From the NCBI RefSeq assembly GCF_003334255.1, contig NZ_QOWU01000013.1: a DNA stretch of 64,000 bases. The stretch is one strand, 5' to 3'. The notes below the pieces were generated by a model, which saw only the letters and a program-made list of their open reading frames with translations, did not search any database and had not been told where the DNA came from. Shown piece by piece: positions 4,972 to 12,665 of the stretch (its first letter is position 1; every line of letters begins with the position of its first letter). Both the position numbers and the translations under genes were made by a program. Source of the DNA: Escherichia coli. GTDB taxonomy: Bacteria > Pseudomonadota > Gammaproteobacteria > Enterobacterales > Enterobacteriaceae.

Positions 4972-5538
4972 ATGGGCAACACTAAGTTGGCTAATCCGGC
5001 ACCGCTGGGCCTGATGGGCTTCGGCATGACCACCATTCTGCTTAACCTGCACAACGTGGGTTATTTCGCTCTGGACGGTATTATTCTTGCCATGGGCATT
5101 TTCTACGGCGGCATCGCGCAAATTTTTGCTGGTCTGCTGGAGTACAAAAAAGGCAACACTTTCGGTTTAACCGCATTCACCTCTTACGGTTCTTTCTGGC
5201 TGACGCTGGTTGCGATTCTGCTGATGCCGAAACTGGGTCTGACCGATGCGCCAAATGCACAGTTCCTTGGTGTCTACCTGGGTCTGTGGGGCGTATTTAC
5301 GCTGTTTATGTTCTTCGGCACGCTGAAAGGCGCACGCGTTCTGCAATTCGTTTTCTTTAGCCTGACCGTGCTGTTTGCCCTGCTGGCGATCGGTAACATT
5401 GCCGGTAACGCCGCAATCATCCACTTTGCCGGCTGGATTGGGCTGATCTGCGGTGCCAGCGCAATCTATCTGGCGATGGGTGAAGTACTGAACGAGCAGT
5501 TTGGTCGCACCGTTCTGCCGATTGGTGAATCCCACTAA
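4972..5538 (+). CDS. satP: Succinate-acetate/proton symporter SatP (YaaH), 188 aa
   Basis: Six-TM hydrophobic protein with NPAPLGL motif typical of the GPR1/FUN34/YaaH family. Confidence 0.9.
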   Translation: MGNTKLANPAPLGLMGFGMTTILLNLHNVGYFALDGIILAMGIFYGGIAQIFAGLLEYKKGNTFGLTAFTSYGSFWLTLVAILLMPKLGLTDAPNAQFLGVYLGLWGVFTLFMFFGTLKGARVLQFVFFSLTVLFALLAIGNIAGNAAIIHFAGWIGLICGASAIYLAMGEVLNEQFGRTVLPIGESH

Positions 5539-9006: not shown

Positions 9007-9783
9007 ATGCTGATTCTTATTTCACCTGCGAAAACGCTTGATTACCAAAGCCCGTTGACCACCACGCGCTATACGCTGCCGGAGCTGTTAGACAATTCCC
9101 AGCAGTTGATCCATGAGGCGCGGAAACTGACGCCTCCGCAGATTAGCACGCTGATGCGCATCAGCGACAAACTGGCGGGTATCAACGCCGCTCGCTTTCA
9201 TGACTGGCAGCCAGATTTCACGCCGGCGAATGCCCGCCAGGCGATTCTGGCGTTTAAAGGTGATGTCTACACCGGCTTGCAGGCCGAAACCTTCAGCGAA
9301 GACGATTTCGATTTTGCCCAACAGCATTTGCGAATGCTTTCCGGCTTGTATGGCGTACTCCGCCCGCTCGATTTAATGCAGCCTTATCGTCTGGAAATGG
9401 GGATCCGTCTTGAGAATGCCCGAGGGAAAGATCTGTATCAATTCTGGGGAGATATCATCACCAACAAGCTGAACGAGGCGCTCGCAGCACAAGGCGATAA
9501 TGTGGTGATTAATCTGGCGTCAGATGAGTATTTTAAATCGGTGAAGCCGAAGAAATTGAATGCCGAGATTATCAAGCCGGTGTTCCTCGATGAGAAGAAC
9601 GGCAAATTTAAGATCATCAGCTTCTACGCTAAGAAAGCACGCGGTCTGATGAGTCGTTTCATTATTGAAAATCGGCTGACCAAACCAGAGCAACTGACTG
9701 GTTTTAATAGCGAAGGTTACTTCTTTGATGAAGATTCCTCCAGCAATGGCGAACTGGTGTTTAAACGCTACGAGCAGCGTTAA
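9007..9783 (+). CDS. yaaA: Peroxide-stress protein YaaA (UPF0246), 258 aa
   Basis: Full-length ORF starting [16 protein letters not shown]. Confidence 0.9.
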
Positions 9784-9793
9784 GTTTGCAGTC

Positions 9794-9905
9794 AATGCCG
9801 GATGCGGCGTGAACGCCTTATCCTGCCTACAAAAGCATGCAGATTCAATATATTGCAGAATTAACGTAGGCCTGATAAGACGCGCCAGCGTCGCATCAGG
9901 CGCTG
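9794..9905. repeat. REP (repetitive extragenic palindrome) pair
   Basis: TGCCGGATGCGGCGTGAACGCCTTATCC...CTAC and GTAGGCCTGATAAGACGCGCCAGCGTCGCATCAGGCG motifs in opposite orientation between convergent yaaA and yaaX. Confidence 0.75.
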
Positions 9906-9935
9906 AATGCCGGATTGTTACCCGGCATTTGTCAT

Positions 9936-10232
9936 TTAGCGGTGATGTTTGCCTGGACCATGACCGCCGTGATGATCATGAGGAGCTTTCTTATGGTGGC
10001 GCGGCGGTGGCGGCGGTCCGTGTAGGTGCCAGCGATTGCCTCGCCATTCATAATGTTGTTTCCACCAGCCGTGGTCGCGCCAGTGACCTCCATCCCAGTA
10101 ATAGCCACGATTATCACGATCGCCTATCTGTAATTTTACTGACGGGACTAACGTAATTTCCGCAGCCTGTGCTGCCATGGGAGCGACCAGAACCAGGGAA
10201 AGTGCGAGTACGATAGATTGCATCTTTTTCAC
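9936..10232 (-). CDS. yaaX: Small secreted His/Trp/Gly-rich protein YaaX (DUF2502), 98 aa
   Basis: Signal peptide ([23 protein letters not shown]) followed by an H/W/R/G/P-rich low-complexity domain (...[30 protein letters not shown]). Confidence 0.8.
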
Positions 10233-10389
10233 AGGTTACTCCTTTTATCATTGCCCGTTATGGGTCGATATCCGGAGATTACTCGATGAGAACGGCGGTT
10301 GTTATTCTCCGCAATCCTAATCTCTAAGTTACCGCATTTATTGAGAATTTCTCCTTTTTCCCTGTCATTTTTCTCCATAATTTCTTCAT

Positions 10390-10423
10390 AAAAAAGCCGG
10401 GCTGCATAAAAGCAAACCCGGCC
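10390..10423 (-). terminator. thr operon terminator downstream of thrC
   Basis: On the thrC strand: GCCGGGTTTGC...GCAGCCCGGC hairpin followed by a T-run (A-run 10391-10395 on the + strand). Confidence 0.65.
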
Positions 10424-10445
10424 TGATTGAGATAATGAATAGATT

Positions 10446-11732
10446 TTACTGATGATTCATCATCAATTTACGCAACGCAGCAAAATCGGCGGGCAGATTA
10501 TGTGAAAGCAAGGGTAAATCAGCACGTTCTGCCAGCTCTTTTGGCAGATCCAACGTTTCACCGAGAATCGCTTCCACGCTCTCTTTAAATTTCGCCGGAT
10601 GCGCGGTGCCGAGGAACAAGCCATATTCGCCTGGATTCAACTGATCACGCAGCGCACGATAAGCTACGGCAGCGTGCGGCTCCGAAGTGTAGCCCAGTTC
10701 TTTTAACTCACGCATTGTCTGTTGCGTGGTTTCATCATCCACGGCTGCATAACCCAGCTCTTTCAGTTGCCAGATTTTGCGGCGGAACAACTCTTCCACA
10801 CGCGGCCAGTTGTTCGGCTGACTCACGTCCATCGCGTTGGATAACGTCGCCTGAGTCGCTTTGGGTGACCACTGACCGTCGTGCAGGAAACGTGGCACGG
10901 TATCGTTCACGTTGGTCGCAGCAATAAAACGTTTCACCGGCAGACCGAGTGACTTCGCCAGCAGACCCGCCGTCAAATCGCCGAAGTTTCCGCTTGGCAC
11001 CGAGACAACCAGCTGGTTGCGCGTCTCCTGCGGCAGCTGCGCAACAGCTTCAAAGTAGTAGCAAATCTGCGCCAGCAAACGGCTGATGTTAATCGAGTTA
11101 GCCGAGTTTAACCCTAGCGCCACTTTCAGTTCTTCATCATCAAACGCCTGCTTCACCAGCGCCTGACAGGCATCGAAATCGCCGTCGATGGCAACAGTTT
11201 CGATATTGCCGCCCAATGTACAGAACAGTTTTTCTTGCAGTGGACTGATTTTGCCTCGTGGATAGAGGATAACCACTTTCACATTCGGTAAACCGTAGAA
11301 AGCATGAGCCACTGCCGCTCCGGTATCACCGGAGGTCGCGGTCAGAATGGTCACTGGCTTATCACCCGCAATATGGGTCAGCATTTGTGCCATAAAGCGA
11401 CCGCCGAAATCTTTAAATGCCAGCGTTGGCCCGTGGAACAATTCCAGACAACCGACATCGCTTTCAACATTGGCGACCGGAGCCGGGAAGGCAAACGCCG
11501 CGCGCACGCGCTCTTCCAGGATTTCCTGTGGGATTTCATCACCAATAAACGCCGAGAGGATCTTCGCACTGCGGGTGACAAAATCCAGCTTCAGCATCTC
11601 ATCAATTTCAGTCAGGCTGAATTCCGGCAGGTCGTGCGGAAAAAACAGCCCCTGATTTTTGCCCAACCCCTGGGTTACGGCTTGCGCAAAGCTGACCTGC
11701 TCGTTGTGATCTTTCAGATTGTAGAGTTTCAT
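10446..11732 (-). CDS. thrC: Threonine synthase, 428 aa
   Basis: Full-length ORF (MKLYNLKDHNEQVSFAQAV...); last gene of thrLABC. Confidence 0.97.
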   Translation of the reverse strand: MKLYNLKDHNEQVSFAQAVTQGLGKNQGLFFPHDLPEFSLTEIDEMLKLDFVTRSAKILSAFIGDEIPQEILEERVRAAFAFPAPVANVESDVGCLELFHGPTLAFKDFGGRFMAQMLTHIAGDKPVTILTATSGDTGAAVAHAFYGLPNVKVVILYPRGKISPLQEKLFCTLGGNIETVAIDGDFDACQALVKQAFDDEELKVALGLNSANSINISRLLAQICYYFEAVAQLPQETRNQLVVSVPSGNFGDLTAGLLAKSLGLPVKRFIAATNVNDTVPRFLHDGQWSPKATQATLSNAMDVSQPNNWPRVEELFRRKIWQLKELGYAAVDDETTQQTMRELKELGYTSEPHAAVAYRALRDQLNPGEYGLFLGTAHPAKFKESVEAILGETLDLPKELAERADLPLLSHNLPADFAALRKLMMNHQ

Positions 11733-12665
11733 TTAGTTTTCCAGTACTCGTGCGCCCGCCGTATCCAGCCGGCAAATATGAACAAAACCTTCCTGATTTT
11801 GCAGGTAGTTCTTACCCAACCAGTCGGCAACGCGCTGGGCGGTTTCCGGCTTGTCACACAGAGCGAACAAGGTCGGGCCGGAGCCGGAGATACCGCTCGC
11901 TACCGCGCCGATTTCCGCGACCGCCTGCCGCGCCTGCCGGAAGCCTGGCAGTAACCGTTCACGGTAGGGTTCAGCGATAACATCTTTCATCAGCTTCGCG
12001 GCAAGCTCAGGCTGACGGGAATAGCAGGCGTGAATGAAGCCTGCCAGATGTCGCCCGTGCGCAATGCAATCCTGGCGGCGATACTGCGCCGGTAAAATAG
12101 CCCTGGCTTCTGCCGTCGAGACTTTAATCCCCGGATACGCCAGCACCCACAGCCACTCATCAAACCCTGGCACTTGCTGGCTGATGATGTCGTTTTCTTC
12201 GATCATCAACTGCATACCACCGAGAAAACACGGTGCCACGTTGTCGTAATGAATGCTGCCGGAGATACGGCCTTCCAGCTCGCCCATCAAAGCCAGCAAA
12301 CGAGTGTCATTAAGCGGCTTGCCGCAGTGTTCATTCATCGCCATCAGCGCCGCGACCACCGAACAGGCACTGGAGCCTAAGCCCGAACCGATCGGCATAT
12401 TCTTTTCCAGGGTCATCGCCACTGGAATTTGCTTACCCAGTTCCTGGCAAAAACGCTCCCAGCACTGATAAACGATATTTTCCCGTGGTTCTGACGGCAG
12501 CTTATCGGCAAAGCGTCCGAGGTTGTTGAGACTGAATGTCTCTGCCGCCTCAACCGTGACTACATCTCCGAGCAATGCACCATCAACAGGTGTCACCGCC
12601 GCCCCGAGCACATCAAACCCGACGCTCATATTGGCACTGGAAGCCGGGGCATAAACTTTAACCAT
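11733..12665 (-). CDS. thrB: Homoserine kinase, 310 aa
   Basis: GHMP-kinase motif [10 protein letters not shown]; stop/start adjacent to thrC (cat at 11730-11732). Confidence 0.97.

Follow-up and report, generated by a model that had tools for sequence, protein, structure and literature searches.

Described systems comparable to YaaX

Several groups of proteins offer points of comparison for YaaX, the product of a 98-codon gene on the minus strand, at positions 9936 to 10232, of a 64,000-nucleotide stretch of Escherichia coli DNA (contig NZ_QOWU01000013.1, assembly GCF_003334255.1; the whole stretch is called the window below). Histidine-rich metal-binding segments are present in the His/Asp-rich loop of ZnuA, at the N-terminus of ZinT, and in the tails of SlyD and HypB. 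Among the envelope stress proteins, Spy, CpxP, and ZraP are helical and Asr is fully disordered. Designed tryptophan-zipper hairpins and WW domains are short β-hairpins that carry Trp and Tyr on both strands around a Gly-containing turn.

YaaX belongs to no characterized metal-binding, chaperone, wall-binding, or defense family, and its likeness to members of such families is one of composition or regulation only. With the segments of ZnuA, ZinT, SlyD, and HypB it shares a disordered His- and Asp-rich stretch in an exported protein, but no homology was detected and YaaX lacks an attached solute-binding or chaperone domain. Like Spy, CpxP, ZraP, and Asr, it is a small exported protein that envelope stress induces; one RcsB regulon table lists Spy together with yaaX, and in cusS mutants zraP varies along with yaaX. 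Unlike these four proteins, YaaX has a predicted β-hairpin mini-domain for which no fold match was found, its similarity to Spy being restricted to the signal peptide. Searches at both the sequence and the fold level revealed no homology to ZraP, Spy, CpxP, ZinT, ZnuA, RcnB, or CusF. The predicted hairpins resemble tryptophan zippers and WW domains in that AlphaFold places strands at exactly the positions of the motifs, whereas no Pfam WW match and no structural match in the PDB were obtained; this likeness is at the motif level only.

Behind its signal peptide, YaaX consists of two parts: a conserved and probably folded mini-domain rich in aromatic residues, and a variable His-rich tail. The reading that we tentatively prefer is one in which the His (and Asp) tail, borne by a scaffold of Trp hairpins, would bind metals in the periplasm. 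The gene, the DUF2502 family to which it belongs, and its induction by the Rcs system have all been catalogued before, and their identification here is not a discovery. What is added is modest, namely the division into core and tail, the repeat ancestry of the core, the lack of a fold relative, the finding that neither the charge nor the polyproline run of the tail is conserved, and an upstream block that is conserved but has no canonical RcsB box.

Architecture of YaaX

The features of the coding region, all on the minus strand, are the following.
9936–10232: yaaX coding sequence, 98 codons plus a TAA stop, GTG start (open reading frame (ORF) list, identity to MG1655, Pfam match)
10164–10232: signal peptide, residues 1–23, predicted cleavage between AQA and AE (hydrophobicity profile, −3/−1 rule)
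10023–10163: DUF2502 mini-domain, residues 24–70, strand-turn-strand with a DRDxxG loop and the aromatic hairpins YYWDGGHW and YEWRGNRW (invariant columns, AlphaFold2)
9939–10022: variable, predicted disordered His-rich tail, residues 71–98, of low model confidence, with length and sequence not conserved and composition kept family-wide
10002–10016: five Pro codons, CCG CCG CCA CCG CCG, residues 73–77 (read from the sequence)

The name yaaX given to this ORF in the original prediction is correct, since the DNA is 100 % identical to the annotated yaaX of MG1655 and other K-12 strains. In E. coli K-12 the gene (b0005, coordinates 5234–5530 in MG1655) is annotated as "yaaX: DUF2502 domain-containing protein" and is flanked by thrC and yaaA. 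Over the 801 bases around yaaX, identity to K-12 MG1655 and to many other strains is 100 %. The protein stretch quoted in that prediction is present verbatim in the 98-residue translation. Of 5426 complete E. coli genomes, 5425 contain the coding sequence, and yaaX is therefore a core gene of the species. It is near certain that it encodes a member of the small DUF2502 family, a protein of about 9 kDa that is predicted to be exported by the Sec route and to be soluble in the periplasm.

The signal peptide noticed in the original prediction was borne out. It is of the Sec type, with a KK n-region, a hydrophobic core (Kyte-Doolittle value of 2.95 over residues 6–16), and an AQA/A cleavage site, and the A-x-A site is retained in 18/18 aligned homologs. 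YaaX matched NCBIfam models only weakly, and only in the signal peptides of Spy and of porins. No segment of the mature protein exceeds a Kyte-Doolittle value of 1.32, which means that a second hydrophobic segment is lacking, and because YaaX contains no Cys at all, there is no lipobox. With a cleavable type I signal peptide and neither a lipobox nor a further hydrophobic segment, YaaX is expected from its sequence to be soluble in the periplasm.

The composition of the mature part (75 residues) was compared with that of the 36 long ORFs of the window using a binomial test. His accounts for 13 of the 75 residues (17.3 % versus 2.3 % in the background; P = 1.5 × 10^−8) and Trp for six (8 % versus 1.3 %; P = 4 × 10^−4), the combined enrichment having a P value of 1.3 × 10^−11. 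In its His plus Trp fraction YaaX ranks top among the 163 six-frame ORFs of at least 60 residues in the window. Of the five amino acids originally said to dominate the product, His and Trp are thus extreme and Gly and Pro are mildly enriched (P about 0.02 and 0.01), while Arg is not enriched (P = 0.17). Ten of the 13 His residues are located in the last 30 positions. The calculated isoelectric point (pI) of the mature E. coli protein is about 10.

The description of YaaX as a signal peptide followed by a single His/Trp/Gly/Pro-rich tail had to be abandoned: residues 24–70 are conserved and probably folded, and only residues 71–98 form a variable region of low complexity. An alignment of 18 sequences contains 24 invariant positions between residues 18 and 68, among which are W46, W51, W57, Y61, W63, W68, D38, D40, D47, and D53 as well as R39, R52, R64, G37, G43, and G48; beyond residue 70 the homologs in this alignment vary freely in length and sequence. 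In a wider alignment of 44 sequences, G37, D40, G43, W46, D47, G48, and W51 are still invariant. The single Pfam match of YaaX is to DUF2502 (PF10697; E = 2.3 × 10^−13, 50.6 bits; residues 25–73 against positions 1–61 of the 90-position model), and the GDRDxxGxYWDGxxWRD motif that marks this family is present behind the N-terminal signal peptide. As to the His/Trp pattern, the loss of which in orthologs had been named as refuting the original proposal, its Trp part is invariant, whereas His is kept in composition only and not in position.

In the AlphaFold2 model of full-length YaaX, the predicted local distance difference test (pLDDT) score is 84–93 for residues 31–70 and 46–49 for the last 20 residues. 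A trimmed model made from the 44-sequence alignment gave a pLDDT of 83–92 over model residues 11–50 and a predicted template modeling score (pTM) of 0.57. Strands are predicted at YW/HW and at YEWR/RWHL, with a short helix in between. No fold or sequence match of the core was found outside DUF2502 and no structural match in the PDB, and a PDB sequence search with YaaX returned nothing meaningful. If YaaX is read in the manner of a tryptophan zipper, the invariant aromatic residues may mainly serve to hold together a mini-fold that has neither a core nor a disulfide.

Distant members of the family contain two tandem copies of a unit of approximately 25 residues, [IF]G[DS]xDxxGxYWDGxxWRDxxWW, the hairpins of which follow the pattern YxWxGxxW. 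In a joint alignment, YEWRGNRW of YaaX matches YYWDGxRW of the second copy in these two-repeat homologs. YaaX and its paralog YpeC can therefore be described as one full repeat followed by the hairpin remnant of a second one.

The tail was examined in 128 family members. Its median His content is 28 %, and 109 of the 128 tails have a His within their last three residues; in pooled composition H makes up 16 %, R 14 %, D 10.5 %, G 10 %, and P 8 %. With His counted as neutral, the net charge is positive in 50 tails, about neutral in 40, and negative in 38. A tail that acts as a constant polycation is ruled out by this variation in sign. In sequence terms, selection appears to retain His in the tail, often together with Asp, without fixing the charge or the positions. 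As the net charge is not conserved, a role based on His, in metal binding or pH switching, is favored over simple binding as a polycation.

The PPPPP run at the beginning of the tail is found in Escherichia/Shigella alleles only and is missing from orthologs elsewhere, which rules it out as a conserved functional motif, for example as a ligand of the protein's own Trp hairpins; even PPP occurs in only 20 of the 128 tails. A proline-related ribosome pause in yaaX, seen in Ribo-seq and nascent-chain profiling, has been reported (review PMC13410324), from which it follows that the gene is translated. With at least three consecutive Pro codons and a reported pause, yaaX has the attributes of a polyproline-stalling gene and is a candidate for dependence on EF-P. 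Five deposited YaaX variants (P0009, P0010, P0016, P0019, and P0020) have frameshifted hydrophobic tails that start at or just after the GC-rich CCG/CCA run, as a consequence of either sequencing or assembly error or real slippage. At codon 70 (10023–10025), at the boundary between core and tail, K-12 has Leu (HLHG) and the other Escherichia/Shigella sequences compared, about a dozen, have Pro (HPHG, HPQG, or HPYG); Leu70 looks like a lineage-specific substitution.

The DUF2502 family and the paralog YpeC

A search of 5.8 billion proteins yielded 153 relatives of YaaX, all but a few fragments of which carry the DUF2502 label and the named members of which are all Enterobacteriaceae. When 1.84 billion cluster representatives were searched exhaustively with a profile, only 104 were retrieved at E ≤ 0.001, and the family is therefore very small. 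Fold-level matches in AFDB50 also come from Klebsiella, Salmonella, Yersinia, Serratia, Hafnia, Pantoea, and Erwinia, and cluster look-ups added a few Betaproteobacteria (Jeongeupia, Azonexus) and a gammaproteobacterial metagenome-assembled genome (MAG). Scanning one genome for each of 100,044 species revealed 232 encoding sites, the best 80 of which were used for a comparison of loci. Two stable arrangements emerged from these 80: thrC -> yaaX <- yaaA, which is present in the great majority of the yaaX-type loci (six have yaaA/yaaJ but no match to thrB/thrC), and yfeO -> ypeC <- mntH, seen in the 14 loci of the ypeC type. Orthologs of yaaX occupy the same locus in more than 25 genera, and their core is invariant.

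The paralogous and two-repeat members to which reference is made below are the following.
ypeC: MG1655, L001:8002–8328; other ypeC loci are L049, L059, L066, L068, L070–L072, L075, L076, L078, L079, L081, and L084–L086
Two-repeat DUF2502 proteins: P0134, P0140, P0143, P0144, P0146, P0160, P0172, and P0217

YpeC (b2390) is the E. coli paralog of YaaX. The two proteins have the same type of signal peptide, a core with YEWRxNRW, and a low-complexity tail with a His end; they are 48 % identical overall, and according to published data both genes depend on RcsB. They differ in their loci, that of ypeC being equally stable but another one, and in their tails, which are rich in Arg, Gly, Tyr, Trp, and Asp in YpeC and in His and Pro in YaaX. 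A MarA/SoxS site is located upstream of ypeC while yaaX is without one. Two conserved elements lie upstream of ypeC, a MarA box, TTTAGCAAAAAATGC, and the sequence TTWARGAGTT. The ypeC gene is always convergent with mntH, which encodes a manganese transporter of the Nramp type, and this also holds for the distant two-repeat homolog P0172.

Two-repeat proteins were found in Brenneria, in Pantoea-like Enterobacterales, and in a few Betaproteobacteria. They share with YaaX the unit of about 25 residues and have tails rich in His, Asp, Gly, and Pro, but contain two full tandem units where YaaX has one full unit and the hairpin of the second. In some of them, CPPGQAKKGxC is found at the end of the protein, a sequence that is absent from the enterobacterial forms, including YaaX; these proteins come from Jeongeupia and from two MAGs, one of Azonexus and one gammaproteobacterial.

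Published regulation of yaaX and ypeC

The original statement that the function of YaaX is unassigned still stands, as a full-text literature search retrieved no dedicated study of yaaX, ypeC, or DUF2502. No paper naming any of the three in its title was found in that search, the mentions being in omics tables and lists; the sole abstract that matched "yaaX" belongs to an unrelated paper on Leptospira in wild rodents.

The yaaX gene was listed among the genes of the RcsB regulon, as was Spy (PMC2731931). It was upregulated by 4.1 log2 units upon treatment with colicin M (PMC3599342) and 8- to 12-fold by a LolCDE inhibitor, in a study where it was noted as RpoS-induced (PMC5105897). In an rcsB-disrupted O157:H7 strain, ypeC was downregulated 23.7-fold (PMC5343319). 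The latter gene is also a target of MarA/SoxS (PMC5684230), and the marbox is visible and conserved in its upstream region. A Serratia DUF2502 promoter requires rcsB and is in use as an Rcs reporter (PMC8470065). In addition, yaaX was one of 23 genes altered in all cusS mutants in lysogeny broth, alongside zraP and cus genes (PMC10920338). According to these published transcriptomes, yaaX is switched on by the Rcs phosphorelay (and RpoS) in response to disturbances of peptidoglycan, the outer membrane, or the sorting of lipoproteins. The "envelope interaction" suggested in the original prediction fits this membership of the Rcs regulon.

Possible functions of YaaX

In the function that we tentatively propose, residues 24–70 would form a tiny Cys-free scaffold of aromatic β-hairpins (YxW-turn-xW) similar to a tryptophan zipper, which would be the protease-resistant body of the protein and might self-associate or dock. 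The disordered C-terminal tail, rich in His or often in His and Asp and with a His end, would bind divalent Zn, Ni, Cu, or Co in the periplasm, and YaaX, induced by stress, would buffer metals or hand them over while the envelope barrier leaks. In E. coli and Shigella, the PPPPP run could tie synthesis of YaaX to the relief of ribosome stalling. Metal binding by the tail is plausible from its composition. This reading is preferred because the family tails conserve His content and the C-terminal His, not charge, and because His/Asp-rich disordered segments of exported proteins are typically metal ligands, as in the ZnuA loop and ZinT. The co-variation of yaaX with zraP and cus in cusS mutants and the position of ypeC next to mntH are weak links to metals. 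UniRef and AFDB give a Pantoea DUF2502 protein of 112–116 residues (A0A0B1RBG7; cluster member P0229) the name "Zinc ABC transporter substrate-binding protein", which was probably transferred via the low-complexity tail of this protein, rich in His and Asp, and should not be taken to indicate a function.

If, in a periplasm that has suffered damage, the His tail serves as a metal buffer or a pH switch, YaaX would be a small missing piece of the Rcs response, and its mini-domain would be a new, very small, Cys-free periplasmic fold. The gene, the fifth on the map of E. coli K-12, occurs in practically all genomes of the species and is among the more strongly induced genes under envelope attack (colicin M, Lol inhibitor, Rcs activation).

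A number of observations weigh against metal binding. The positions of His in the tail are not conserved, the tail of E. coli YpeC is dominated by Arg, Gly, Tyr, Trp, and Asp with few His residues except at its very end, and in some distant members His makes up only 5–11 % of the tail. The inducers of yaaX on record are forms of envelope damage and not metals, and no link to Zur, Fur, CueR, or NikR was found. The ypeC and mntH genes are convergent and not co-transcribed. Also to be counted here is the lack of a canonical RcsB box upstream of yaaX, described in the next section. The strongest selection is on Trp, Tyr, Asp, Arg, and Gly in the core, and the ligand or partner of these residues is left unexplained by a metal-binding tail; the putative likeness to a tryptophan zipper, for its part, comes only from the motif and the predicted strands.

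A possible although doubtful alternative is a binder of envelope polymers or membranes, in which the Trp/Arg/Tyr-rich mini-domain holds a sugar or a phospholipid head group, the tail adds electrostatic adhesion, and damaged envelope is thereby patched or shielded. Peptidoglycan glycan strands, lipopolysaccharide or lipid A, osmoregulated glucans, and colanic acid are candidate ligands. The invariant residues are aromatic ones together with Asp and Arg, a make-up typical of carbohydrate- and interface-binding sites, and a pI of about 10 for the mature E. coli protein would suit such adhesion. Induction by peptidoglycan damage, lipoprotein mis-sorting, and Rcs activation is in line with it, as is the near confinement of DUF2502 to the Enterobacterales, the group that has the Rcs system. 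A disordered stress protein switched by pH, with a tail that becomes strongly cationic below approximately pH 6 and a function as a periplasmic holdase or aggregation modulator like Asr, HdeA/B, or Spy, would account for the conservation of His richness in the tail without that of net charge at neutral pH, for the predicted disorder of the tail, and for an expression that tracks RpoS and envelope stress, with Spy in the same RcsB-regulon list. It is unlikely, however, as YaaX is related to Spy, CpxP, ZraP, HdeA, and Asr neither in sequence nor in fold, the literature search retrieved no data on acid induction of yaaX, and the invariant folded core is left unexplained. Elements of these readings are combined in a more speculative and quite unlikely one, according to which DUF2502 is a natural tryptophan-zipper hairpin-repeat fold that had escaped notice and has no PDB relative, and YaaX and YpeC dock on an envelope component or on the Rcs sensing machinery as a pair of Rcs-controlled effectors or feedback modulators, linking damage to the buffering of metals or pH via their His tails; the conserved upstream block would then be the site of a further regulator or of an RcsB partner.

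A defensive decoy or inhibitor, by which YaaX would neutralize a host enzyme, bacteriocin, or peptide entering the periplasm, is very unlikely. Ivy and MliC, which act in this way, are Rcs-controlled lysozyme inhibitors; the Rcs regulon is common to yaaX and ivy, induction by colicin M is strong, and YaaX is small and periplasmic. This support amounts to guilt by association: YaaX is not similar to any inhibitor family, neither YaaX nor YpeC matched the PADLOC defense models, and the fast-evolving low-complexity tail is unlike that of a specific inhibitor. That the ORF is a chance one or a decaying gene, with a composition derived from GC-rich repeats, has practically no probability left. The frameshifts after the Pro run in some database variants and the fast evolution of the tail could be cited in its favor, but it is refuted by conservation, namely by the near-universal presence of the gene in E. 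coli, its retention at one locus in more than 25 genera with an invariant core, and the conserved Shine-Dalgarno sequence and start position; moreover, translational pausing has been reported and the gene is regulated in many transcriptomes.

Locus, upstream region, and flanking elements

The genes and elements around yaaX in the window are the following.
11733–12665, minus strand: thrB
10446–11732, minus strand: thrC
10388–10424, minus strand: intrinsic terminator of the thr operon, stem plus U-run (UUUUUU), RNA fold −20 kcal/mol, z = −3.97
10299–10390, minus strand: conserved non-coding upstream block directly after the thr terminator (28 aligned upstream regions, i.e., 27 loci plus the window), with near-invariant cores TTAGGATTGCGGAGAATAAC (10301–10320) and GAGAAATTCTCAATAAATGCGG (10332–10353)
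10239–10244, minus strand: Shine-Dalgarno sequence AAGGAG, 6 nucleotides before the GTG, kept as AAGGAG in the 28 aligned upstream regions
9907–9928, minus strand: hairpin UGCCGGGUAACAAUCCGGCA, 8 nucleotides past the yaaX stop, RNA fold −15.1 kcal/mol, z = −2.89, no U-run after it
9762–9927, no strand assigned: cluster of repetitive extragenic palindromic (REP) sequences/bacterial interspersed mosaic elements (BIME) between the convergent yaaX and yaaA (Rfam REP-derived families, megablast)
9007–9783, plus strand: yaaA
7507–8937, plus strand: yaaJ

From the identity to MG1655 and the gene order thrB, thrC, yaaX, yaaA, yaaJ it follows that the window contains the beginning of the E. coli chromosome in reverse orientation. 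An operon of yaaX with thrABC is ruled out by the strong terminator in between, and because this terminator is located just upstream, yaaX needs a promoter of its own within 10233–10390. It is near certain that yaaX is an ordinary monocistronic core gene with its own promoter, situated between the thr terminator and the REP cluster. Its GTG start aligns with an ATG in 24 other genera, which supports the annotated start.

The upstream block of approximately 90 nucleotides is conserved over about two dozen genera of Enterobacteriaceae, more strongly than the adjacent codons of the signal peptide. Across the aligned upstream regions, the near-invariant cores are TTAGGATTGCGGAGAATAAC and GAGAAATTCYCAATAAATGCGG. 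Most simply, the block is presumably a promoter together with a site for an activator or other regulator. A scan of the intergenic region with the sigma-70 consensus gave no match on the yaaX strand, both of its matches being on the opposite strand. Neither the upstream block nor the leader had a match in Rfam, and the RNA fold of the leader was no better than that of shuffled sequences (z = −0.26).

The consensus for the RcsB homodimer box, TN(G/A)GAN4TC(T/C)NA, was taken from the literature (PMC7913699). No canonical box was found in 10233–10445, even when one mismatch was allowed; only TNRGA half-sites are present in this region, plus a GAGAA-A-TTCTC palindrome with a spacer that is one base short. 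Control by Rcs may therefore be indirect, and it could also be exerted via a heterodimer or via a non-canonical site.

An upstream ORF of 49 codons (10229–10378, minus strand), which spans the conserved upstream block and the TGA of which overlaps the GTG of yaaX as GTGA, was considered as a conserved upstream ORF and rejected, since the frame has no start codon in 13 of the 25 anchored regions, which come from the window and 24 genera. The end of this frame drifts from +58 to −78 nucleotides relative to the start of yaaX, and judging from these alignments the ORF is most likely not a gene.

Downstream of yaaX, the hairpin at 9907–9928 is probably a 3′ end or stabilizer element. In the REP cluster, the Rfam scores were 47.2 and 38 bits for naRNA4, below the gathering score, and 38.7 bits for ES036, above its gathering score of 37.6. 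The 169,422 places in E. coli genomes at which the flanking query matched in megablast are accounted for by this REP/BIME cluster.
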